Source: Paenibacillus sp. (GTDB taxonomy: Bacteria > Bacillota > Bacilli > Paenibacillales > YIM-B00363). Taken from it: a stretch of DNA of 64,000 bases. Each line of letters opens with the position of its first letter. Position 1 is the stretch's first letter. The stretch lies in contig NZ_DASQNA010000017.1 in the NCBI RefSeq assembly GCF_035645195.1, positions 39,011-103,010 on the forward strand, given 5' to 3'. The translations under genes were made by a program, and so were the position numbers. Below, one piece after another: positions 3,079 through 64,000 of the stretch. Below the pieces are notes generated by a model that was not told the origin of the DNA, made no database searches, and saw nothing but the letters and a program-made list of their open reading frames with translations.

Positions 3079-3094
3079 GCTAATGCGCCGCGAG

Positions 3095-3462
3095 CCGTAT
3101 GGATCGTCGGCGTGCAGCCCCGTTATGGGAAGCATGTATGCAAAAGAAGGGAGGCCCCTGCCCATAATTAGCATACGTCCTTCCCATAATGCGCCGCGCG
3201 CCGTCTGGAGCGTCATGTGTGCAGCCGCGTTATGGGAAGCATGTATGCAAAAGAAGGGAGCCCCCTGCCCATAATTAGCATACGTCCTTCCCATAATGCG
3301 TCTCGCGCCGCCTGGATCGTCGGTGTGCAGCTCCGTTATGGGAAGCATGTATGCAAAAGAAGGGAGCCCCCTGCCCATCTTTAGCATACGACCTTCCCAT
3401 AATCGCCTCGCGCTGCCTGGCTCATTGGCGTGCAGCTTCGTTAAGGGAAGTGTGTGTATGCA
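3095..3462. repeat. Tandem array of 105-107 bp units with internal inverted repeats (3 full + 1 degenerate)
   Basis: TTATGGGAAG starts at 3123, 3230 and 3336, with a degenerate copy at 3441. Each full unit closes with its complement CTTCCCATAA and has an inner GTATGC/GCATAC pair. Confidence 0.9.
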
Positions 3463-8789: not shown

Positions 8790-11700
8790 TGCGCGCGATA
8801 TTGAAATGGCGCTGGCTCGTCTTCGCGGCGTGGATCGCGGCGACGGCCGCGCTCGTCGTTGCCGCTCCGAACATGGAGGAGCTCGTCCGCACGAAAGGGC
8901 AAATCGAGGTGCCGGACGGCTATTCGTCTTCGGTCGCGGCGGAGCTGATCGACGAGCTGAACGCCGGGAAAGCGGAAGGCGGCGAAGGCGCTTCTGCGGT
9001 GCTCGTCCTGCACGACGGGGAGGGGCTCGGCGAGGAGGGGCTCGCAGCCGCGCGCGAGGCGATCGAGCGGCTCAAGGCCGGCGAGGCCGAGTACGGCATC
9101 ACCGGCGTGACGACCCACTTCGATACGCCGGAGCTGGAAAGCCAGCTCGTGTCCGAAGACGGGACGACGGCGCTCGCGCTCGTGACGATCGATATGGGCG
9201 GACGGACGCCGGCCGAGGCGAAAGACGCGCTGTACGAAGCGATCGGAGACACCTCGCTCGAGCATTATTACACGGGCGGCTGGCTCATTTCGGAGGACGT
9301 CATTCAGAGTTCTCAGGCGGGGCTGAAAAAGACGGAATGGATTACGCTCGTGTTCATTCTGGCCATTTTGTTCGTCGTATTCCGCTCGGCGGTCGCGCCG
9401 TTCATTCCGCTCGTCGCGGTCGGCTTCAGCTACGTCGCGGCGCAGTCGATCGTCGCGTTCCTCGTGGACGGCTTCGATTTTCCGCTGTCGAATTTTACGC
9501 AGATTTTTCTCGTCGCCGTCCTGTTCGGCATCGGCACGGACTACTGCATTTTGCTGATCAGCCGGTTTAAGGAAGAGCTGGCGCATGCGGACAACGTGCA
9601 GGATGCGGTGCTGGCGACGTATCGGGCATCGGGCAAAACGGTGTTGTTTTCCGGCCTCGCGGTGCTCGTCGGCTTTACGTCGATCGGCTTCTCCAAGTTC
9701 GTGCTGTACCAATCGGCCGCCGCGGTCGCCGTCGGGGTCGCGGTGATGCTGCTCGCGCTCGTTACGCTCGTGCCGTTCTTTATGGCGACGCTCGGCCCGA
9801 AGCTGTTCTGGCCGGCGCGCGGCTCGCTCGAGCATAAGCCGAGCCGGCTGTGGGGCGCGGTCGGCTCCTTCGCCTTGAAGCGGCCGGTCTGGGCGCTGCT
9901 CGTGCTGGCGGCGGTGACGGTGCCGGCGCTGTCCGTATATCAAGGTTCGACGTCGTTCAACTCGCTCGATGAGATCGGCGACAAATACGAGTCGGTCAAG
10001 GCGTTCAACCTGATCGCGGAGGGCTTCGGCCCCGGGGACTCGCTGCCGACGACCGTCGTCTTGAAGGCGGACCGGCCGTTCGATACGCCGGAGGGGCTCG
10101 CGGCCGTCGAGCAGGTGTCGCGGGAGCTGGCGCAGGTGGACGGCGTGAAGCTCGTCCGCAGCGCGACGCGCCCGACGGGCGACGCGATCGAGGATTTACG
10201 AATCGCGAAGCAGGCGGAGACGCTGGGGAGCGGCATCGGAGAGGCCGGCGACGGCCTCGGACAAATCGGCTCGGGGCTGCAGGAGGCCGGCGAAGCGCTG
10301 AAGGCGAACGCGCCGAAGCTGCAGGACGCTGCCGCGGGAGCGGGGCAGCTCGTCGACGGGACGATCGAGTTGAAGACCGGCGTCATCCAGCTAGGCGACG
10401 GGCTGCAGCGCATCGAGCAGGGGCTGCGCGAGGGCTCGGTCGGCGCGGCGGAGCTGGCGCAGGGGCTGCGCGAGGCGCATGCGAGCGCCGAGCAGCTAAG
10501 CGCGGCGGCCGCGCAGCTGTCGCAGAGCTACCGGACGATCGGCGTCGGGCTCGATGCATTGGCAGGCGCGTATGAGCAGACGACGGCGAAGCAGGCGGAG
10601 CTGACGGCCGGCCTCGCGTCGGTCGGGCAAGGGCTCGACGCGCTCGCGGCGAACTATCCGGAGCTGCAGGACGATGCGGGCTTCCAGCAGGTGCGGGGCG
10701 CCGTCGCGCAGCTCGCGGACGGCTCGGCGCAGCTGAACGAAGGGCTCGCGCAGCTGAACGAGCAGCTCGAAGCCGTCGCCGGCGGCGTGAAGCAGGCGAA
10801 CGCCGGCTTGGAGCAGGCGGCCGCGGGTCAGCAGGCGCTGACGCAGGGGCTCGCGCAGCTGGCGGAGGGCATCGAGCAGCTGCAAGCGGGCATCGAGCAG
10901 GCCGCGGCGGGCCAAGGCCAAATCGTCGCCAAGCTGCCGGAATTGAACGGCGGCTTCGACCGGCTGACCGAAGGACAGCGCGAGCTGCAGAGCGGATTCG
11001 CGCAGCTGTCCGCGCAGCTCGGGGAGCTGACGAACGGCTTGGATCAGAGCGTGGACGGCTTGACGCAGGTGACGGAAGGGCTCGCGTCCGCGCAGGAGTA
11101 TCTCGCAGGGCTGTCGTCGGCGCCGAACGAGCAGCTGACCGGCTGGTATTTGCCGCCGGAGGCGGCGGATCGCGGCGACTTCCGCACGGCGCTCGATGCG
11201 TACATGTCGGCGGACCGGACGCTCGTCAAGTTCGACGTCGTGTTCGAGGGCAATCCGTACGCCGAGGAGACGTTGTCCAAGACGGCGCTGCTGGAGGACG
11301 CCGTCGACCGCGGGCTGCAGGGCACGGGGTTCGAAGATGCCCGATCCGCGCTGGGCGGCGTGACGAGCATGAACAGCGATTTGCGCGAGATTTCCGCCGG
11401 CGACTACAAGCGGACCGTCGCGCTCATGCTGATCGGCATCACGCTCATCTTGATCGTGCTGTTCCGCTCGCTCGTCATGCCGATGTATCTCGTCTTGTCG
11501 CTGCTGCTGACGTATTACACGTCCATGGCGTTCGCCGAGCTGCTGTTCGTGCGCATTATCGGCCTCGACGGCATCAGCTGGGCGGTGCCGTTCTTCGCCT
11601 TCGTCATGCTGATGGCGCTCGGCATCGACTACAGCATTTTCCTGATGGATCGCTTCCAAGAGTACCGGCACCTAGACCCGAAGGAAGGCATCCTGCTCGC

Positions 11701-11971
11701 GATGAAGCGGATGGGCGCCGTCATCATGTCGGCGGCCGTCATTCTCGGCGGCACGTTCGCCGCGATGCTGCCGTCCGGCGTCATGTCGCTCATGCAGATC
11801 GCCGTCATCGTGCTGTGCGGCCTGTTCCTGTACGCGATGGTCATGCTGCCGCTGTTCATTCCGGTCATGATACGCGTGTTCGGGCAGGCGAATTGGTGGC
11901 CGTTCATGGAGCCGCCGGGCGCCGAGGCGATCCGCGCGGCGGACGCGCACGGGAAAACCTTGCACCATTAA
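8786..11971 (+). CDS. MMPL family RND transporter with long heptad-repeat insertion
   Basis: Two MMPL halves (GIGTDY, ALGIDY) separated by a Leu/Gly/Ala heptad coiled-coil region. Confidence 0.92.
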   Translation: MMRAILKWRWLVFAAWIAATAALVVAAPNMEELVRTKGQIEVPDGYSSSVAAELIDELNAGKAEGGEGASAVLVLHDGEGLGEEGLAAAREAIERLKAGEAEYGITGVTTHFDTPELESQLVSEDGTTALALVTIDMGGRTPAEAKDALYEAIGDTSLEHYYTGGWLISEDVIQSSQAGLKKTEWITLVFILAILFVVFRSAVAPFIPLVAVGFSYVAAQSIVAFLVDGFDFPLSNFTQIFLVAVLFGIGTDYCILLISRFKEELAHADNVQDAVLATYRASGKTVLFSGLAVLVGFTSIGFSKFVLYQSAAAVAVGVAVMLLALVTLVPFFMATLGPKLFWPARGSLEHKPSRLWGAVGSFALKRPVWALLVLAAVTVPALSVYQGSTSFNSLDEIGDKYESVKAFNLIAEGFGPGDSLPTTVVLKADRPFDTPEGLAAVEQVSRELAQVDGVKLVRSATRPTGDAIEDLRIAKQAETLGSGIGEAGDGLGQIGSGLQEAGEALKANAPKLQDAAAGAGQLVDGTIELKTGVIQLGDGLQRIEQGLREGSVGAAELAQGLREAHASAEQLSAAAAQLSQSYRTIGVGLDALAGAYEQTTAKQAELTAGLASVGQGLDALAANYPELQDDAGFQQVRGAVAQLADGSAQLNEGLAQLNEQLEAVAGGVKQANAGLEQAAAGQQALTQGLAQLAEGIEQLQAGIEQAAAGQGQIVAKLPELNGGFDRLTEGQRELQSGFAQLSAQLGELTNGLDQSVDGLTQVTEGLASAQEYLAGLSSAPNEQLTGWYLPPEAADRGDFRTALDAYMSADRTLVKFDVVFEGNPYAEETLSKTALLEDAVDRGLQGTGFEDARSALGGVTSMNSDLREISAGDYKRTVALMLIGITLILIVLFRSLVMPMYLVLSLLLTYYTSMAFAELLFVRIIGLDGISWAVPFFAFVMLMALGIDYSIFLMDRFQEYRHLDPKEGILLAMKRMGAVIMSAAVILGGTFAAMLPSGVMSLMQIAVIVLCGLFLYAMVMLPLFIPVMIRVFGQANWWPFMEPPGAEAIRAADAHGKTLHH

Positions 11972-14814: not shown

Positions 14815-15243
14815 TTATTGGTAGTAGCCTTGGTTGAAATGAGAAGGCTGTTGGATCGCTTGGTTCGCGATCGAGCCCATCGTTTGGCGAACCGTCGATT
14901 CCAGCTGGCGGCACGCCTGCACCGCTTGCTGCAGCGCGTTGATCGCATGATAGTGCTCTTGCAGCATGTGCTGGATTTGCTGCGCGTTTTGCTGCTCGAG
15001 CTGCGCCATTTGCGTTTGCTCCTGCAGCATCTGTTGGATGCGCTGCGCGTTTTGCTGCTCCATTTGCGCCATGTGCGCCTGCTCATGCATCAGCTGCTGA
15101 ATGCGCTGCGCGTTTTGCTGCTCGAGCTGCGCCATTTGCGTATACAGCTGGTTGTGCTGCTGCGTCTGCTGGATGACTTGCTGGCAGAGCGCCTCGATTT
15201 GCTGGAACTGCTGCGAGATTTGGTTCGTTTGCGCTTGGTGCAT
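14815..15243 (-). CDS. Gln-rich protein (142 aa) with three 21-aa repeats
   Basis: AGGAGG RBS before ATG 15243. Repeats: QMAQLEQQNAQRIQQLMHEQA / HMAQMEQQNAQRIQQMLQEQT / QMAQLEQQNAQQIQHMLQEHY. Confidence 0.8.
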   Translation of the reverse strand: MHQAQTNQISQQFQQIEALCQQVIQQTQQHNQLYTQMAQLEQQNAQRIQQLMHEQAHMAQMEQQNAQRIQQMLQEQTQMAQLEQQNAQQIQHMLQEHYHAINALQQAVQACRQLESTVRQTMGSIANQAIQQPSHFNQGYYQ

Positions 15244-20045: not shown

Positions 20046-20091
20046 CGCGAGCCGGCCGGGCTGGCGGCGGTTTCTCCGGCGCCCGCGGCCG

Positions 20092-20652
20092 GGAATAGTC
20101 GGATTATCTCCGACTAAATCGTCCCAACCAGCGCCCGCGGCGGGAATAGTCGGAGTATCTCCGACTAAATCGCCTCAACCGGCGCCCGCGTCCGGAATAG
20201 TCGGAGTTTTTCCGACTAAATCGCCTCAACCGGCGCCCGCGTCCGGAATAGTCGGAGTTTCTCCGACTAAATCGCCTCAACCGGCACCCGCGTCCGGAAT
20301 AGTCGGAGTTTCTCCGACTAAATCGCCCCAACCGCCGCCCGCGTCCGGAATAGTCGGAGTATCTCCGACTAAATCGCTCCAACCGGCGCCCGCGGCCGGA
20401 ATAGTCGGAGTCTCTCCGACTAAATCGCCTCAACCGGCGCCCGCGTCCGGAATAGTCGGAGTTTCTCCGACTAAATCGCCCGAACCGCCGCCCGCGTCCG
20501 GAATAGTCGGAGTTTCTCCGACTAAATCGCCCGAACCGCCGCCCGCGACCGCAATAGTCGGAGTTTCTCCGACGAAATCGCCCCAACCGGCGCCTGCGGC
20601 CGGAATAGTCGGAGTTTCTCCGACTAAATCGCCCGAACCACCGCCCGCGGCC
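20092..20652. repeat. 11 x 51 bp tandem palindromic array
   Basis: Unit starts at 20092, 20143, ... 20602, exactly 51 bp apart. Most units contain TAGTCGGAG-N3-CTCCGACTA (units 1 and 10 have one mismatch) plus a GC-rich, slightly variable 21 bp linker. Confidence 0.95.
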
Positions 20653-20669
20653 GCCCGTCGAAGTTTCGC

Positions 20670-57778: not shown

Positions 57779-58456
57779 ATGGCGGCATATCGCTCCGAAT
57801 ATTTCGCGTTCGATCGGGAGGGCCGGCCGATGAAGGCGGTCATCCGCAATTACGGGCCGGACGATTTCGACGCGCTGATCGACATTCAGCGGGAATGTTT
57901 CCCGCCGCCGTTCCCTTCGGAGCTGTGGTGGACGAAGGAGCAGCTCGCGTCCCACGTGCGCTTGTTCCCCGAAGGCGCGGTGTGCGTCGAGGCGGACGGC
58001 AAGCTCGTCGGCTCGATGACCGGCCTCATCGTCCAATACGACCCTGCGGAGGCGGCGCACACGTGGGCGGAGACGACGGGCGAGGGCACGATTTCGACGC
58101 ACGACCCGAACGGGGACACGCTGTACATCGTCGACGTCAGCGTCCGCCCCGGGTACCGCCAGTACGGGTTCGGCAAAGCGATGGCGTACGCGCTGTACCA
58201 CCTGGTCGTCGAGAAGAAGCTTAAGCGGCTGCTCGGCGGCGGGCGCATGTCGGGGTATCATCGGTACGCGGACGAGCTGTCGGCGGAGGAATACGCGGAG
58301 GCCGTCGTCGCGGGGCGCCTCAAGGATCCCGTCATCACGTTCCTCCTGCGCTGCGGCCGGACGCCCGTGCGCGTCGTGCCGAACTACTTGGAAGACGAAG
58401 AATCGCGTAATTACGCACTGTTGATGGAGTGGAAAAATCCGTTCATTCGAGAGTAG
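57779..58456 (+). CDS. GNAT acetyltransferase (YkwB-like)
   Basis: ECFPPPFP, HDPNGDTLY, GGGRMSGY and PNYLEDEES motifs. Confidence 0.88.
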   Translation: MAAYRSEYFAFDREGRPMKAVIRNYGPDDFDALIDIQRECFPPPFPSELWWTKEQLASHVRLFPEGAVCVEADGKLVGSMTGLIVQYDPAEAAHTWAETTGEGTISTHDPNGDTLYIVDVSVRPGYRQYGFGKAMAYALYHLVVEKKLKRLLGGGRMSGYHRYADELSAEEYAEAVVAGRLKDPVITFLLRCGRTPVRVVPNYLEDEESRNYALLMEWKNPFIRE

Positions 58457-58469
58457 AGGAGATAGAGAT

Positions 58470-59141
58470 ATGGAATATATCCGCATTCAAAGCATCGAAG
58501 ACCCGCTGTTCGCCAAAATGCACGCGCTGATGGGCACCATTTTCCCGCCGGAGGAAGTGCTCGAGTTTTCGCTGTGGGAAGAGCCGCTCAAGGATCAAGG
58601 CTTGCGCGTGTACGTCGCCGTGCACGAGGGCGAAGTCGTCGGCGCGACGGAGTACCGGTACTACCCGGAGATGCGCGTCGCGATGACCGACTTTACGATT
58701 ATCGGGCGCGAAGGGCTCGGCATCGGGCCGTTCCTTGTCAAGCATCGATCCGCTGATTTGGCGGAATGGGTGAAGCGGACGGAAGGGCCGATGCTCGGTA
58801 TGTTCGCGGAAATTTACAACCCTTACGCGGTCGAGGATCTCGGGTTCGGCGGCGTCAAGCCGATGAACCCGTACGTTCGCCGCGAGGTGCTCGCGCATCT
58901 CGGCTACAAGCGATTGGACATGGACTACGTGCATCCGTCCTGGCAGGGCGACGGCGAGGCGGTCGGCGGGTTGAACTTGGGCTTCCAGCCTGCCGACGAC
59001 AGCATGGACAGCCTGCCGGGTTCGTTGATCGCGCGCTTCCTGCGCACGTATTATGAGATTTTGAACCCGAAGCCCGCCGCGTGGCTTTCGATGGTCGACG
59101 CGGTGGAGAAGCGGGACAAGGTCGCGCTGCTGCCGCTGTAA
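58470..59141 (+). CDS. GNAT-fold protein
   Basis: VVGATEY, REGLGIG and MFAEIY segments. Confidence 0.75.
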   Translation: MEYIRIQSIEDPLFAKMHALMGTIFPPEEVLEFSLWEEPLKDQGLRVYVAVHEGEVVGATEYRYYPEMRVAMTDFTIIGREGLGIGPFLVKHRSADLAEWVKRTEGPMLGMFAEIYNPYAVEDLGFGGVKPMNPYVRREVLAHLGYKRLDMDYVHPSWQGDGEAVGGLNLGFQPADDSMDSLPGSLIARFLRTYYEILNPKPAAWLSMVDAVEKRDKVALLPL

Positions 59142-59299
59142 CCGGCGGGCGGCCATCGTTCGGCGCCGTCGCGGATCGTTCCGCGGCGGCGCTTGTTTGC
59201 GTTTGGGCCGGAGCTGGGCGCCGCTTGTCAGCTGGGCTTCTTCGTGCCCGACGTGGATAGCCTCTACGGTTTGCTGCATTCGCCAGCGATCGAAATTTC

Positions 59300-59326
59300 G
59301 GAAACCTTTTTCGGCTCCGACTCGTA
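59300..59326 (+). promoter_or_regulatory. sigmaW-like ECF promoter
   Basis: GGAAAC-N17-CGTA upstream of spo0M, which is a sigmaW target in B. subtilis. Confidence 0.55.
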
Positions 59327-59367
59327 TGATTGTGTAAGAACGCGATACATATAGGAGGATGGTTGGG

Positions 59368-60141
59368 ATGTCGTTTTTCAATCGGGTCATGGCGAGCATC
59401 GGCATCGGCGCGGCGCAGGTCGATACGGTGCTGGAGAAAAACCGGTACGCCCCGGGCGAGCTCGTCCGCGGCGTCGTTAAAATCAAAGGCGGCAACGTCG
59501 AACAGCAGGTCGATTCGATCTACATTTCGGTCATGACGCAGTACGTGAAAGAAGTCGACGACCGGAAAGTGTACCAGAGCGCGGAAGTCGCCAAAACGCG
59601 CGTCTCCGAGCCGTTCCTCGTGAAGCCCCAGGCCGCTTCGGAAATTCCGTTCTCGTTCGAGCTGCCGCTCACGACGCCGCTGTCCGTCGGACGGACGCCG
59701 GTTTGGCTGAAAACCGGGCTCGACATCAAGAGCGCAGTCGACCCGACCGACGACGACAAAATCGAAGTCGTGCCGAACGCGGCAATGCAGGCGGTGCTCG
59801 ACGGCGTCTCCGAGCTCGGCTTCCGCCTCCGCAACGCGGACTGCGAATATGCTCCGCGCTTCGGCTACGGCGCGTTCGTCCAAGAGCTCGAATTCGTCCC
59901 GATGTCCGGTCCGTACCGCGGCCGGTTGGACGAACTCGAAGTCATCATGCACCCGAGAGGCGACTCCATCGATTTGTTCCTCCAAGTCGACCGCCGGGCT
60001 CGCGGGCTGGCCGGCCTGTTCTCCGAAGCGCTCGAGATGGACGAAACGAACGTGCGCTTCACGCTCGACGCCGCGACGCTGTCGCGGGGCGCCGGCGCCG
60101 TCGCCGCGCAGCTCGACGCCGTGATCCGGCGTTACTCGTAA
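59368..60141 (+). CDS. spo0M: Sporulation-control protein Spo0M
   Basis: ASIGIGAAQVDT, DPTDDD, FVQELEF, LDELE and QVDRRARG motifs. Confidence 0.92.
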   Translation: MSFFNRVMASIGIGAAQVDTVLEKNRYAPGELVRGVVKIKGGNVEQQVDSIYISVMTQYVKEVDDRKVYQSAEVAKTRVSEPFLVKPQAASEIPFSFELPLTTPLSVGRTPVWLKTGLDIKSAVDPTDDDKIEVVPNAAMQAVLDGVSELGFRLRNADCEYAPRFGYGAFVQELEFVPMSGPYRGRLDELEVIMHPRGDSIDLFLQVDRRARGLAGLFSEALEMDETNVRFTLDAATLSRGAGAVAAQLDAVIRRYS

Positions 60142-60165
60142 GCCGGTTCGGATGAGGCCGTTCTT

Positions 60166-60804
60166 ATGATACGAGCGATCATTTTCGATTTGGACGGGAC
60201 GATCGGGGATACGCTGCCGCTGTGCATCGCCGCGTTCCGGAAGTCGATCGAGCCGCTCGCGGGCAGGGCCGTGTCCGACGAGGAGATCGTCGCGACGTTC
60301 GGCCCTTCGGAGGAAGGGACGATCCGGGCGCTCGTTCCCGATCATTACGAAGAAGGCGTCGAACGGTATTTGGCCCATTACCGCGAATTGCATCCGATGT
60401 GCGGCCGCCCGTTCGACGGCATCGCCGACATTCTCGATTTCGCGAGAGCGCGCGGCGTCCGGCTGGCGATGGTGACGGGCAAAGGCGCGAGAAGCACGGA
60501 CATTACGCTGGAGGCGTTCGGCCTGCGGCACGCGTTCGAAATCGTCGAAACCGGCTCGCCGCACGGTCCGCGGAAGGCGGAAGGCATCCGCAGCGTGCTG
60601 GACCGGTTCGAGATCGAGGCTGGGGAAGCCGTGTACGTCGGCGACGCGCCCAGCGATATCGAGGCGTCGCGGAAGGTCGGCGTCGCGATCGTCTCCGCCG
60701 CGTGGGCCGGCACCGCCGACCCCGAGGCGCTGCGGGCGCTTGCGCCCGACGAGCTGTTTACGGACGTGGCCGGCTTCCGGCAGTATCTCGAACGGGTATG
60801 CTGA
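60166..60804 (+). CDS. HAD-superfamily hydrolase
   Basis: FDLDGT, VTGK and YVGDAPSD motifs. Confidence 0.92.
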   Translation: MIRAIIFDLDGTIGDTLPLCIAAFRKSIEPLAGRAVSDEEIVATFGPSEEGTIRALVPDHYEEGVERYLAHYRELHPMCGRPFDGIADILDFARARGVRLAMVTGKGARSTDITLEAFGLRHAFEIVETGSPHGPRKAEGIRSVLDRFEIEAGEAVYVGDAPSDIEASRKVGVAIVSAAWAGTADPEALRALAPDELFTDVAGFRQYLERVC

Positions 60805-60824
60805 TGTCGTCAGTTGAATGGAAC

Positions 60825-60860
60825 TCCCCCGCTTCGGCGCTCGCGCCGGGGCGGGGGTTT
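60825..60860 (+). terminator. Intrinsic terminator
   Basis: CCCCCGC...GCGGGGG GC-rich stem followed by TTT. Confidence 0.55.
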
Positions 60861-61020
60861 GCTTGCGTCGGGGGAGGAGGGCAGTTGCGTTGCTGGGGGG
60901 CCGGGCCGCCCGTGGCTCCGCCGCTGCCCGCAATCCTCGCCCGCAGCCGCTCTCTGGAAACCGCTCCCTTGGAACTAGGTTTCCGCGTCCGCTTCCCGCA
61001 CCGCGCTTCCGCGTCTGGCC

Positions 61021-61245
61021 ATCTGCACCCGCATCCCCACCCGGCAACCGCGCCCCGCAATCCAGCCCGGCCATCCGCGCCCGCATCCGCGCCCCGTATC
61101 CGCACCCCGTATCCGTGCCCCGCAATCCATTCCCGACCATACGCGCTCGCATCAGCGCCCCGCAATCCAGCCCGGCCATCCGGGCCCGCATCCGCGCCCC
61201 GTATCCGCTCCCAGCATTAGTGCCCCGCCATCCGCGCCCCGCATG
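61021..61245. repeat. C-rich degenerate repeat region with a 54 bp block repeated at 105 bp spacing
   Basis: GCGCCCCGCAATCCAGCCCGGCCATCCGsGCCCGCATCCGCGCCCCGTATCCGC at 61050 and 61155; built from ATCCG-containing subunits. Confidence 0.8.
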
Positions 61246-61263
61246 GATAGTACCCCCTGCACA

Positions 61264-61947
61264 TTAATGCCCTGTCCCTTCGTGACACCGGGTTCCGCTA
61301 GGTACCGAATACCCGGTAATGCGCCGATTCGTCGGGCGATGCGGAAGGAGCGATCCGTCGTGCGCCAGCTTTTGCAGCCATAAATAAGCCGTTTTTCGAG
61401 TAACGCCGAACCGTTGAGAGACATGCTGCACTTTAATGATCCCGCGTTGGACGGCGAGCGAAACGATCTCGGATTTCCGTTTCGCCCAGAGGTGATCGAC
61501 CGTGGAGATTTGGCAGTGGTGGGCGACGATCAAACATTTGCCCACCGCTTGCACGAGCTGCCTTCTGCAAAGCATCGGCTTCTTCATCACCATGTTCGCG
61601 GTAAACCGGACTAGGATCCATCGACCGCTTAAGACGAGGTCGTTTTGCCTCTCTTGATGGTCGTCGTACTGCTGCGCGGTTAAACCGTCGACGTGATACC
61701 TATAGCCATCGATTTCAATGATGATACGGATGTCGCCGGATTCGTAATAGAAATCGAGAAACCGGTTGCCTCCTTTGTAGTCTTTGACGCGAAACTGGGC
61801 GTGGAGCCCGTTGAAATTGAACGAAAACTCGGGTCCGAAGACTTGGTCTAGAAACATGCATTCGATTTCGTTCAACCGCGTGTCGATTCCGCCGCGCCGG
61901 AACTTCTCCTCCACGGACTCCACGTACTTTCTGACCTCGGGGTGCAT
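61264..61947 (-). CDS. Vsr/DUF559-like nuclease fused to a C-terminal winged HTH
   Basis: FLDF...IIEIDGYRYH...ERQNDL...WILVRFT nuclease pattern. C-terminal VQHVSQRFGVTRKTAYLWLQKL helix-turn-helix. GGAGG RBS. Visibly lower GC than its neighbours. Confidence 0.75.
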   Translation of the reverse strand: MHPEVRKYVESVEEKFRRGGIDTRLNEIECMFLDQVFGPEFSFNFNGLHAQFRVKDYKGGNRFLDFYYESGDIRIIIEIDGYRYHVDGLTAQQYDDHQERQNDLVLSGRWILVRFTANMVMKKPMLCRRQLVQAVGKCLIVAHHCQISTVDHLWAKRKSEIVSLAVQRGIIKVQHVSQRFGVTRKTAYLWLQKLAHDGSLLPHRPTNRRITGYSVPSGTRCHEGTGH

Positions 61948-61968
61948 TCGCCTACCTCCTCTAACAAA

Positions 61969-62011
61969 TAAAAAAAGCACGCATGGATCCGGTTAGGTTC
62001 CATGTGTGCTT
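61969..62011 (-). terminator. Leader terminator ahead of the nuclease RBS
   Basis: 13 bp stem AAGCACACATGGA / TCCATGCGTGCTT (one mismatch) followed by a T tract, about 10 nt before the RBS. Confidence 0.6.
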
Positions 62012-62024
62012 CACATTTAGTTTT

Positions 62025-62053
62025 ATTGTAGTAGGGCGGGCGGAGGTTGTCTA
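62025..62053 (-). promoter_or_regulatory. sigmaA-like promoter of the nuclease gene
   Basis: TAGACA-N17-TACAAT. Confidence 0.6.
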
Positions 62054-62109
62054 GAGCAAAATCCGTTCGTCGCGCCGTGGCAAGCGGAATGGCGGGCTGC
62101 GTCGAGGAA

Positions 62110-62718
62110 TATGGGTAGGAGGTACGCGAAATAGCGGAAGGGTAGTTACATAAGTTGGGTAGGAGGTACACATAATGGCGGCGGGGAGTGCGGTGGAAGC
62201 GCAGGAGCCGGCGGTTATGGGTACGAGGTACACAAAATAGCGGAAGGGTAGTTACATAAGTGGGGCAGGAGGTACACATAATGGCGGCGGGGAGTGCGGG
62301 GAGAGCGCGGGAGCGGGCGGTTATGGCTAGGAGGTACGCAAAATAGCGGCAGGGTGGTTACATAAGTGAGGCAGGAGATTCCCATAATGGCGGCGGGGAG
62401 CACGGGGGGAGAGCGTGTGCGGGCGGTTATGGGTAGGAGGTACGCAAAATAGCGGAAGGGTAGTTACATAAGTGGGGCAGGAGGCACACATAATGGCGGC
62501 GGGGGGTGCGGTGGAAGCGCCGGAGCGGGCGGTTATGGGCAGGAAGTATGCATAATAGCGGAAGGGTAGTTACATAAGTAGGGTAGGAGGTACACATAAT
62601 GGCGGCGGGGAGTGCGGGGAGAGCGCCGGAGCGGGCGGTTATGGGCAGGAGGTAGGCATAATAGCGGAAGGGTAGTTACATAAGTGGGGCAGGAGGTACA
62701 CATAATGGCGGCGGGGGG
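62110..62718. repeat. 6 x 106 bp tandem direct-repeat array
   Basis: GTTACATAAG at 62145, 62251, 62357, 62463, 62569 and 62675, exactly 106 bp apart. Each unit has two related AGGAGGTAC subrepeats spaced 44 and 62 bp. Confidence 0.95.
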
Positions 62719-62818
62719 CCAGAAAGAGAGCGCCAAAGCGGCGAATGGACGAGCCGAATTTTGCTTCCGATCGAGCTTTTCGGGTAAGATGTGAGTGAAC
62801 GCAGGGAGGGACCTCACC

Positions 62819-63856
62819 ATGAACGTTACGATCGGCGCCCGGGTCGTCAAGACGGGCATCGCCGTCGCATTGGCCTTATATATCGCGCGGCTCGCGTTCC
62901 CCGAAAGCGTCACGATCGCGGGGGTCGCGGCCATTTTCGCCATCCAGCCGTCCGTGTACCGCTCCTGGCAGCATCTGCTCGAGCAAATGCAAACGAACAC
63001 GCTCGGCGCCATGCTGGCGCTCGGCGTCAGCCTCGTCCTGCCGGTCAACGAGGTCGTCGTCGGGCTGACGTGCATCGCGGTCATCCTCATCACGCTGGCG
63101 CTGCGGATGGAAACGACCGTAGCGCTGACGCTCGTCACGACGATCGTCGTGCTCGAGGCCGGCGGCGAGTGGATGTATGCGCTGGAGCGGTTCGGCACGA
63201 TTCTCATCGGCATCGGCGCCGCGTTCCTCGTGAACGCGATCGTCATGCCGCCGAATCATAAGAAGCAGTTCCTCGACAGCTACCGCGACGCGCTCGGCAT
63301 CATGTCGCTGCTCATTCGCACGGCCGTCAGCGACGAGCTGAAGGAGCGGGAAGCGAAGGCGCAGCGCGACCGCCTGAACGATATCGTGCGCAAGCTCAAC
63401 GAGCGATACGGCATGCTGGAGGAGGAATGGCGCAAATGGCGGCGATTCCGCTCGCAGCCGAGCCGGCACCTCGTCGTTCACAAGCAGATGGTGCGCGCCA
63501 TGACGATCGGGCAGCTCGTGCTGGACGCGGTGGAGACGCACTATTTTCCGCAGCGGAAGGACGAATCGGCGGATCGGGAATTCGACGACCGGCTCGAAGA
63601 GCTCATTCGGTACCACGAGTATACGCTGCTGAAGTACGAGGGGAAAATGAAGCCGGGCGACCAGCTGTACGAGCGGATCGGCGAGCAGACGGAGAAGCTG
63701 CTGCGGGACGCGATCAAGCAAACGGAAGGCGAGGCGAACGGCAGCGTCTCGCTCGTCGTCGTCGCGTCGGCGGTATACGAGTACGGACGGCAGCTGCGCC
63801 GGCTCGACAAGATGATCGGCAACGTGCAGCACTCGGAAGACGGAATAGGCGAATAG
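62819..63856 (+). CDS. Aromatic acid exporter / FUSC family membrane protein
   Basis: IGARVVKTGIAV and AIFAIQPSVYRSW N-terminal motifs. Confidence 0.88.
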   Translation: MNVTIGARVVKTGIAVALALYIARLAFPESVTIAGVAAIFAIQPSVYRSWQHLLEQMQTNTLGAMLALGVSLVLPVNEVVVGLTCIAVILITLALRMETTVALTLVTTIVVLEAGGEWMYALERFGTILIGIGAAFLVNAIVMPPNHKKQFLDSYRDALGIMSLLIRTAVSDELKEREAKAQRDRLNDIVRKLNERYGMLEEEWRKWRRFRSQPSRHLVVHKQMVRAMTIGQLVLDAVETHYFPQRKDESADREFDDRLEELIRYHEYTLLKYEGKMKPGDQLYERIGEQTEKLLRDAIKQTEGEANGSVSLVVVASAVYEYGRQLRRLDKMIGNVQHSEDGIGE

Positions 63857-64000
63857 CACGAAAGAAGAGCCCCGGACAGCCCGCCGACAGGAACATCGGC
63901 AGCCTTCCGCGGGCTCTTGCTGTACGTTCGGGATTACCGGTTCCCGCGGTGCAGGCGATGCTGCAGCTGACGAACATGGCTGCGCTCCGCCTTCTCCTCG

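Follow-up and report, generated by a model that had tools for sequence, protein, structure and literature searches.

Nuclease–winged-helix genes of a DUF559-like family are associated with flanking tandem repeat arrays in Paenibacillus and related bacteria

We analyzed a 64-kb stretch of DNA from Paenibacillus sp. (hereafter the window, to which coordinates refer unless another locus is named) and followed up its segment 61021–62718, in which a gene for a nuclease-like protein with a C-terminal winged helix-turn-helix (wHTH) domain, hereafter referred to as the nuclease-wHTH gene, lies between two blocks of tandem repeats. Relatives of this gene are flanked by regularly phased repeats far more often than control regions are, and we are highly confident that the association of gene and arrays is real and non-accidental. 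As a package, the best explanation, to which we give an even chance, is that the gene and its flanking arrays constitute one conserved cognate module.

Locus DNA was taken from isolate genomes, metagenome-assembled genomes and metagenomes, and Tandem Repeats Finder (TRF) was run on all of it. For the window-like subfamily, which consists of 13 loci whose proteins are 35–93% identical to the window protein, an array was called at a period of at least 40 and a TRF score of at least 150. Arrays were found within 500 bp of the gene in 9 of the 13 loci and within 1.6 kb in 11 of them, against a background of about five arrays in about 207 kb. As a second measure, we used a phasing statistic that scores 9-mers recurring at 40–125 nt within 500-bp windows, with a threshold score of at least 20. 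This level was reached by 19 of 61 flank windows (31%; 35 independent loci) and by 1.1% of 1183 control windows, an enrichment of about 28-fold. The corresponding binomial and Mann–Whitney P-values (1e-22 and 3e-13) overstate the independence of the loci, because these are phylogenetically related, and to that extent they weaken the case; the effect is large. A first-pass annotation of this DNA had proposed testing whether arrays flank homologs more often than controls, and the outcome was clearly positive. Nor did relatives present the cassette as a syntenic, repeat-free unit: repeats were present, and the neighborhoods varied.

The upstream arrays of the window-like loci end 108–160 nt 5′ of the start codon, i.e., at the promoter, and the downstream arrays begin 12–57 nt past the stop codon. 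At L002, for instance, a 106-bp array of 9.4 copies ends 144 nt 5′ of the start, and a 105-bp array begins 12 nt past the stop. Both sides are likewise occupied in P. antri (L006; 107 bp × 5.5 upstream and 105 bp × 8.6 downstream) and in L012 (105 bp upstream and 104 bp downstream), and in these three loci the same unit family stands on the two sides of the gene. Upstream arrays of 106 bp and 107 bp are present in L011 and P. thermotolerans (L003), respectively, and upstream arrays of 150–171 bp in L001 and L007; L009 has a 116-bp array downstream, and the arrays of L004 and L005 lie 1.1–1.6 kb off. Eleven of the 13 flanking arrays in this subfamily are C-rich on the sense strand of the gene.

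A second, Alicyclobacillus-like subfamily, whose members share about 28% identity with the protein of the window, also has arrays that abut the gene, with periods of 53/106, 52, 42, 62, 113 and 25/50/75+84 bp (L018, L020, L023, L027, L028 and L033). Family-wide, the periods are mostly 51–53 or 104–107 bp, and the array sequences differ between genomes. A separate observation concerns Alicyclobacillus acidoterrestris (L038), which carries microrepeats, not 52-nt arrays: (GGCGACCGAACC)x4 upstream (9830–10000 of that locus) and (GTGGGCGTT)x5 downstream (10673–10780), with a copy number that differs between the assemblies L038 and L039.

TRF reported no arrays at the Solibacillus (L037) and B. salacetis (L041) loci, which belong to a core clade of the family. 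Directly past the stop codon of both genes, a palindromic box, AATAnnCGGAAn(4-5)TTCCnnTATT, is repeated at a spacing of 51/61/52 nt, at least eight times in L037 and four times in L041, where a second cluster lies 4.3 kb away. The ‘spacers’ between the L037 boxes themselves recur as a higher-order repeat, and similar boxes follow the stop codon of the Litchfieldia alkalitelluris gene (L042). For the three taxa taken together, the palindrome can be written AATAnnCGGAn(4-5)TCCnnTATT, with a spacing of 51/61 nt. The more distant protein of P. cellulosilyticus is accompanied by a related but different palindrome, AGGAGCGA-AAAA-TCGCCTCT; here the gene is bracketed by 51-bp arrays that contain 19 boxes spaced 51 nt apart, and five control regions of the same replicon (250 kb) contained neither a box nor a 51-bp array.

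The features of the window are collected in Table 1. The upstream array consists, as the first-pass annotation had described, of six units spaced at exactly 106 bp. TRF reported a period of 106, 5.7 copies and 88% matches over 62110–62716; the sixth unit (62640–62745) is identical to the consensus at 84 of 105 positions, so that a count of six is fair. Each unit contains two direct boxes of about 15 nt (GGAGGTAC[AG]CA[AT]AAT), 44 and 62 nt apart, followed by a G-rich tail of about 37 nt. The longer box pattern occurs six times (0 expected), and the half-site AATAGCGGAA is exact in five units (0.4 expected). The 106-bp period is that of a two-box unit (44 + 62) and not that of a single repeat, for which it had initially been taken. 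The array is G-rich on the plus strand (skew about +0.5), which makes it C-rich on the sense strand of the nuclease-wHTH gene.

Table 1. Features of the window discussed in the text
Feature	Position	Strand	Description and basis
Nuclease-wHTH coding sequence	61264-61947	minus	227 aa; open reading frame list and start-codon check
Sigma-A-type promoter	62025..62053	minus	TAGACA, 17-nt spacer, TACAAT; scan, 10/12 matches
Leader	61966..62014	minus	5′-GTGAAGCACAC (62014..62004), hairpin 62012..61974, T-run; alignment and RNA fold
Ribosome binding site GAGGAGG	61955..61961	minus	7 nt 5′ of ATG; GGAGG kept here in 13 loci
Upstream array	62110-62745		six 106-bp units; TRF, repeat search, box scan
Downstream block	61017-61244		13/52/105-bp periods; TRF, repeat search, GC skew
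51-bp array	20076-20653		51 bp × 11.3, between two convergent genes; TRF
Second 106-bp array	3081-3450		3.5 copies; TRF

The downstream block, which begins about 20 nt past the stop codon, also agrees with its initial description as C-rich and repeated at 105 bp: the segments 61044–61128 and 61149–61233 are 89% identical at 105-bp spacing, and the GC skew of the plus strand is −0.34 to −0.42, i.e., the block is G-rich on the sense strand of the gene. TRF additionally reported periods of 13 (16.5 copies of the subrepeat CCCGCATCCGCGC) and 52 (4.3 copies).

Four further readings of the repeats were tried and rejected. The downstream block is neither the upstream array inverted nor a diverged version of it (z = 0.4). 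The promoter segment 62004–62109 is identical to the array unit at 37 of 105 positions, a value matched by 116 of 2000 shuffles, and is thus not significant as a degenerate unit; similar impressions for L002 were gained by eye. Every upstream unit has AGGAGG-N8-ATG on the plus strand, and we rejected mini open reading frames because this motif is kept in the arrays of no other locus and a unit of 106 bp is not divisible by 3. As judged by eye, the C/G runs that might form G-quadruplexes or i-motifs in the tails are present in some units (window, L012) and not in those of P. antri, and they are therefore no common feature.

The region between the upstream array and the start codon has a conserved order of elements, which was absent from the first-pass account. 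The same succession is found in all 13 window-like loci: −35 box (T[AG]GACA), −10 box (TAAAAT), about 7 nt, the GTGAAGCACAC region, a hairpin, a T-run, GGAGG and the start codon. The window and 11 of the 13 loci each have a single exact copy of the GTGAAGCACAC 11-mer, 5′ of the gene; L007 and L008 carry GTGAAGCACGC. The 11-mer forms the base of the hairpin, which is terminator-like and situated between the promoter and the ribosome binding site. The hairpin base AGCACAC/GTGTGCT never varies, and the upper part varies with compensation. The leader RNA of the window folds at −22.1 kcal/mol (z = −3.9). In the leader alignment 90.7% of the cells pair, six pairs show double-sided changes, and none of 500 shuffles reached the observed score. 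The 11-mer does not vary in the second subfamily either; what follows it there is a different GC-rich hairpin and a T-run. The core Bacillaceae clade lacks the 11-mer. These features suggest that the leader may serve as a terminator-type attenuator and/or as an operator at the transcription start.

The nuclease-wHTH gene runs from an ATG at 61947..61945 to a stop codon at 61266..61264; the protein queries had 228 residues, with one surplus N-terminal residue relative to the true 227-residue product. The protein is laid out as N-terminal helices, a PD-(D/E)XK core of the DUF559/Vsr type, a long helical linker and the C-terminal wHTH domain. Against Pfam, the window protein scored below the gathering cut-offs with both MTES_1575 (PF18741; 19.7 bits, cut-off 38.2) and DUF559 (PF04480; 15.8 bits, cut-off 20.6), and residues 158–205 gave sub-threshold matches to several HTH families, HTH_28 and DeoR among them. 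Among 42 diverse family members, 26 matched MTES_1575 and 24 matched DUF559 at E ≤ 0.01 (best values, 2.5e-7 and 3e-6, respectively), and the C-terminal wHTH models MarR_2, HTH_20, HTH_24 and HTH_IclR were matched in 7–13. The acidic/histidine motif typical of DUF559 (D..F, E-x-D-G-x-x-x-H, R-Q-N, R-F) is present. Residues D57, R63, D66, E79, D81, H86, R101, Q102, N103 and R115 are invariant in family alignment A8 and likewise in alignment A1, except for R101, which is nearly so; F67, F116 and C128 are also invariant or nearly so across the family.

The AlphaFold2 model of the full-length protein (predicted local distance difference test score, pLDDT, 89) shows two N-terminal helices, a beta-sheet core, long helices and a winged helix. 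Its Foldseek matches were ZitR, IclR and MarR-type regulators and Z-alpha winged helices (probability about 1.0), and a profile search of PDB sequences matched AdcR, ZitR and IclR through the C-terminal wHTH domain at E-values of 6e-6 to 5e-4. When the N-terminal 147 residues were modeled alone (pLDDT 78.7), the top Foldseek match in the PDB was 3HRL (NGO0050, endonuclease-like, DUF559; probability 1.00, template modeling score 0.65 on the target), followed by the PD-(D/E)XK nucleases R2 RLE, Can2, Bax1, Cas4 and AbaSI. The E-values of these N-terminal matches are weak (0.012 for 3HRL), and a search of PDB sequences with the N-terminal profile gave no nuclease match. By motif and modeled fold, rather than by Pfam threshold, the protein is a predicted member of the DUF559/Vsr-like superfamily. 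The first-pass annotation had seen a nuclease joined to a C-terminal winged HTH in a gene of lower GC content, and this description holds: the GC content is 50–55%, compared with about 62% in the surroundings.

No methyltransferase gene stands next to the nuclease-wHTH gene in the window or in L006, L009, L037, L038 and L041; because it has no Dcm partner, the protein is not Vsr proper. Pfam and NCBIfam gave no match to a HuH Y1 transposase (TnpA_REP), only weak HTH matches to IS630/IS481 N-termini at most. Source databases name the family of about 220 residues ‘DNA-binding response regulator’ (NCBI, UniRef) or ‘very-short-patch-repair endonuclease’ (JGI, some NCBI and UniRef entries), the latter a name for which we saw no experimental basis; the Pfam scans of the 42 members listed no receiver-domain family.

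A word-indexed search returned 30 full-length relatives at 35–93% identity, every named one of which was from Paenibacillus, and an exhaustive profile search returned 846 cluster representatives at E ≤ 1e-3, many of them about 220–230 residues long and spanning both domains. The family is not confined to the Paenibacillaceae: the gene is physically embedded in arrays across Paenibacillaceae, Alicyclobacillaceae, Bacillaceae and Solibacillus. Members were also found in Litchfieldia (Bacillus) alkalitelluris and Mesobacillus selenatarsenatis and in Heyndrickxia, Evansella, Halalkalibacter and Neobacillus, and no names of the array-poor species B. subtilis or B. cereus occurred among the 240 matches listed. 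Across genera, the Solibacillus, B. salacetis and L. alkalitelluris proteins of the core clade show 73–83% identity. A genome usually has one copy; the phage collection contained no family member, and the plasmid collection contained one match, on a 2.7-Mb chromid-like Paenibacillus replicon. In P. thermotolerans, codon 13 of the gene is an in-frame TAG (643–645 of L003), and the database protein of this copy begins at a later methionine. In L013, a frameshift divides the gene into parts of 161 and 75 residues (10432–10659), and L013 is the one long locus without flanking arrays.

Comparison of the loci points to a module that moves and to turnover of its arrays. The window and P. antri have a common neighborhood (ArAE_1, the gene, Spo0M and GNAT) and proteins that are 61% identical, with unrelated array sequences; P. 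antri and L011 have homologous array units (z = 47) in different gene neighborhoods. A second type of synteny (rRNA methylase ... radical-SAM/DUF4080) is common to L007, L010 and L013, and synteny is thus kept at 57–62% protein identity in two locus types. The loci L007 and L008, which encode one protein and come from two samples, differ by exactly one 171-bp unit. At L042, a higher-order repeat of 297 bp × 4 (10586–11755 of that locus) consists of the last ~78 nt of the gene plus four boxes; because the repeat includes the 3′ end of the gene, tandem duplication has copied part of the coding sequence. A conserved 3′ end of a mobile cassette was looked for and not found.

In four of five genome-scan loci (L001, L002, L003 and L005), the contig ends at the gene or no more than about 0.8 kb from it. 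The sequencing runs that contain the window locus are DNA metagenomes only, and their contigs end inside the array. Breaks of both kinds are typical of repeats in short-read assemblies. The contig from one metagenome run (X1) matches the array up to 62573 and then runs on as TTGTTACGCATACATGCTTCCCATAATGGC, which resembles the unit of the second 106-bp array; the genome or community concerned therefore contains hybrid arrays or additional related ones.

The window contains a single gene of the family. The genes for Spo0M and a HAD hydrolase converge on its 3′ end, the latter with a strong terminator at 60826–60857. On the other side, beyond the upstream array, is the ArAE_1 exporter gene, divergent from the nuclease-wHTH gene, so that the array occupies the gap between two divergent promoters. 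A search for terminal inverted repeats around the nuclease-wHTH gene found none. An Rfam scan of 58000–64000 at E ≤ 1 gave no match, to a CRISPR family or otherwise; PADLOC gave weak HTH-level matches at most and no cas match, and NCBIfam gave weak HTH matches at most. Elsewhere in the window, a block of about 27 kb (25000–52000) has a GC content of 30–47% in otherwise ~62% GC DNA and is probably a horizontally acquired island, and a 63/126-bp tandem repeat at 14954–15183 (three copies, 83% matches) has a period divisible by 3 and probably represents a coding repeat.

Two other arrays of the window may be linked to the nuclease-wHTH family. Each unit of the 51-bp array contains a palindromic hairpin box, AATAGTCGGAG-TTT-CTCCGACTAAAT (the pair can also be written AATAGTCGGAG...CTCCGACT), and its half-site AATAGNCGGAG is exact in 10 units. 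Among 48 loci, the only exact matches to AATAGNCGGAG outside this array were in L042 (eight times) and L037 (once). The half-site AATAGCGGAA of the upstream array is, for its part, the left half of the boxes in L037 and L041. We regard the recurrences of AATAGCGGAA and AATAGNCGGAG as leads toward cognate recognition, not as proof of it. The unit of the second 106-bp array, which holds an inverted repeat (GGGAAGCATGTATGC...GCATACGTCCTTCCC), has a weak but significant similarity to the upstream unit (cyclic local alignment, z = 7.9; 0 of 200 shuffles). This array lies 3′ of a small open reading frame with its terminator, and after the array comes an AT-rich stretch that resembles a promoter. A connection of either array with the nuclease-wHTH gene would rest on these likenesses of sequence. 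There was no significant similarity between the upstream unit and the downstream block, between the upstream unit and the 51-bp unit, or between the two arrays of L009.

The initial view of the arrays as something peculiar to the gene does not hold, both in light of these same-class arrays at a distance and of the literature. Subirana & Messeguer (PMC8161180) described constant-size (51–53 nt), variable and species-specific tandem repeats in Firmicutes, with several families of equal length per genome and short signals that often occur together with their reverse complement; these arrays are partly conserved between strains, vary in copy number and are particularly abundant, as 52-nt repeats, in Paenibacillus. 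Litchfieldia alkalitelluris and Mesobacillus selenatarsenatis, in which we found the family, are listed there as rich or intermediate in 52-nt repeats. The authors reported no obvious function, no evidence for a partner protein and no Cas-like partner, and suggested that there might be a protein whose polymerization on DNA requires the constant size (PMC8161180). The arrays studied here resemble this class in being non-coding and species-specific, in varying in copy number and, in part, in their short signals and their periods: 51 in the 51-bp array, 52/105 in the downstream block and 106 in the upstream and second 106-bp arrays of the window, and 51–53 in related loci. They depart from it in that the main arrays of the window are built of two-box units of 104–107 bp (44 + 62), not of 52-nt monomers, and in that some loci have units of 113–116 or 150–171 bp; a specific gene family is, moreover, physically tied to them. 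The 104–107-bp units may be a two-box version of the 52-nt class, an assignment that is tentative because the box spacing is 44/62 and not 53/53. With these caveats, the window arrays appear to fit the described class of constant-size Firmicute repeats. A full-text literature search found no paper that links constant-size repeats or DUF559 to an array-associated protein, and the connection between the nuclease-wHTH family and such arrays thus appears to be unreported in the searchable literature.

In its logic, the module most closely resembles the pairing of repetitive extragenic palindromic (REP) sequences with their REP-associated tyrosine transposases (RAYTs), as an analogy assembled from unrelated parts and with tandem rather than dispersed repeats. 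The RAYT gene is a mostly single-copy, chromosomal and vertically kept nuclease gene flanked by its own species-specific repeats. The nuclease-wHTH gene is also mostly single-copy and chromosomal and is flanked by genome-specific repeats, related ones being found elsewhere. In contrast to REP/RAYT, its product is a PD-(D/E)XK/DUF559 protein with a wHTH domain, not a HuH Y1 transposase, and the repeats form head-to-tail arrays of fixed period, not dispersed inverted hairpin pairs. With the DUF559/Vsr superfamily (PF04480, PF18741, 3HRL), the protein has in common the core fold and the D..E-x-D..H..R-Q-N..R motif; the additional N-terminal helical pair and C-terminal winged helix set it apart, and an association with arrays is undescribed for DUF559.

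Iteron and centromere-type arrays, of which sopC of the F plasmid, bound by the HTH protein SopB, is an example, are similar in having tandem units with a palindromic site, helical phasing and a neighboring gene for a DNA-binding protein. The present arrays differ in being chromosomal, in occurring at several sites in some genomes, in the nuclease domain of the protein and in having no adjacent ParA-like partner or replication gene. The core-clade loci, with regularly spaced palindromic boxes beside a nuclease gene, are superficially CRISPR-like; membership in CRISPR-Cas was rejected, since the 106-bp units match one another at 88% over their whole length, unique spacers and cas genes are lacking, the periods are 51–61 or 106 bp, and Rfam and PADLOC gave no match. 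We also rejected an intron or intein homing endonuclease: the gene is free-standing, has its own conserved promoter, leader and ribosome binding site, and is mostly intact and syntenic among relatives.

How a cognate module might work can be outlined as follows. The protein would dimerize, and its winged helix would bind short, often palindromic boxes; a spacing of ~52 bp corresponds to about five helical turns and would place successive dimers on one face of the DNA, allowing them to polymerize cooperatively along the array. At the home locus, the phased operator, the conserved promoter and the terminator-like leader might together keep expression low by autoregulation. The PD-(D/E)XK domain would nick or cut at or near bound boxes, and repair by slippage or unequal exchange would duplicate, delete and homogenize whole units in register; occasionally, the module might seed arrays elsewhere. 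In-register repair driven by the nuclease would account for a constant size with fast-changing sequence, for copy-number polymorphism and for higher-order repeats that include the 3′ end of the gene. We infer such a combination of autoregulation and nuclease-driven array turnover with unequal firmness for its parts: recognition of the arrays by the protein is somewhat probable, and action of the nuclease on the arrays, or their generation by it, is a tentative proposal that we rate below an even chance. The first-pass annotation had suggested a non-RAYT repeat-associated nuclease and/or a phased operator; the flank enrichment strengthens this suggestion, and its selfish variant fares less well, as conservation and a chromosomal location are more in keeping with a host function or domestication than with a homing gene that is actively selfish.

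Several observations weigh against the cognate module. About 40% of the loci have no phased repeats in the examined flanks, many of the contigs concerned being short; loci without arrays or with distant ones are L004 and L005, L010, L013, L014–L017, L019, L021, L022, L032 and L038. The upstream and downstream blocks of the window are unrelated in sequence, and the strand skew of the downstream block is opposite to that in most loci. The 51-bp and second 106-bp arrays are 41 and 58 kb away from the gene and have no family member close by; the gene is not needed in cis. The shared half-sites are 10-mers, and their chance recurrence is estimated at a few percent each. Finally, it is doubtful that the protein recognizes the arrays of every species, because the array sequences diverge while the core protein of Bacillaceae is about 80% conserved.

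If the protein did nothing but bind DNA, the arrays would be an operator, a roadblock or a nucleoid scaffold for the winged helix and would arise from ordinary slippage, and the nuclease domain would be aimed elsewhere, for instance at foreign DNA or at repair, or be structural. Such an account, which we think unlikely, draws on the abutment of the upstream arrays to the −35 box, on palindromic boxes about five helical turns apart, on the very high conservation of the core clade, which suggests a host function, and on the proposal in PMC8161180 itself of a protein polymerizing on constant-size repeats. It has to contend with a nuclease motif that is invariant across the family and with arrays downstream of the gene, where an operator is unneeded, and it leaves the rapid turnover of sequence at constant size unexplained. 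Decidedly less probable, in our view, is a mobile, homing-type cassette of about 0.8 kb (promoter, leader and gene) that landed in pre-existing, neutral multi-copy arrays. The gene does interrupt a single unit family in L012 and L002, with a clean-looking junction in L012 (CCCCT / TTA(T)CCGC), its neighborhoods vary between species, and its GC content departs from that of the genome; Vsr-like folds, moreover, include a homing endonuclease family. The usual single copy per genome, the lack of phage members and the one chromid-like plasmid record argue otherwise, as do the synteny kept at 57–62% protein identity in two locus types, the ~80% conservation of the core clade across genera, the failure to find a conserved 3′ end or terminal repeats, and P. 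cellulosilyticus, in which the 250 kb of control regions revealed no other arrays as targets.

A loosely CRISPR-like system, in which the arrays and/or the leader transcript function as guide, sponge or small RNAs and are processed or used by the protein, would suit the constant palindromic box and more variable spacers of the core-clade arrays, the transcription of the 52-nt arrays of B. coagulans (PMC8625621, PMC8161180) and the leader, whose RNA is structured, ends in a U-tail and has an 11-mer at its 5′ end that never varies. We consider it very unlikely, since the window and most Paenibacillus loci repeat whole units (82–97% matches) and hence have no unique spacers, the L037 ‘spacers’ recur in a higher-order repeat, no cas genes and no Rfam or PADLOC match were found, and the winged helix belongs to the MarR/IclR type, which binds DNA. 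To the absence of any functional link we attach just as little credence. Arrays are abundant in Paenibacillus (PMC8161180), some of those in the window are far from the gene, and the loci without arrays in the examined sequence would be expected if arrays simply built up in spare intergenic sequence next to a small gene of unusual composition. Chance accumulation of this sort is difficult to reconcile with the enrichment over 1183 control windows, with the restriction of the P. cellulosilyticus arrays to the flanks of the gene, with arrays that co-move with the gene and are consistently oriented by strand, and with similar boxes beside conserved proteins in three genera.

In many Bacillus and Paenibacillus genomes, tandem arrays with a constant unit length but unrelated sequences rank among the commonest non-coding features, and a conserved gene embedded in such arrays offers a concrete and cheap experimental handle on them. 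The leader hairpin with its invariant GTGAAGCACAC is, independently of the arrays, a putative cis-regulatory element that is so far undescribed. Extended to the whole class, the cognate-module reading would make the DUF559-wHTH family the missing trans-acting partner of the ~52-nt Bacillales repeats, with dimers that polymerize on the DNA and a nuclease that sets and maintains the unit length; the gene would then mark the ‘home’ array, paralogs would serve different array families, and the whole would be a class distinct from CRISPR, REP/RAYT and iteron systems. We put this forward as a speculative possibility, short of a favored conclusion. If the link between gene and arrays is functional, it would explain the assembly breaks and the common mis-annotation of the family, and it would provide, besides REP/RAYT, a second and mechanistically different case of a domesticated nuclease with its own repeat family.

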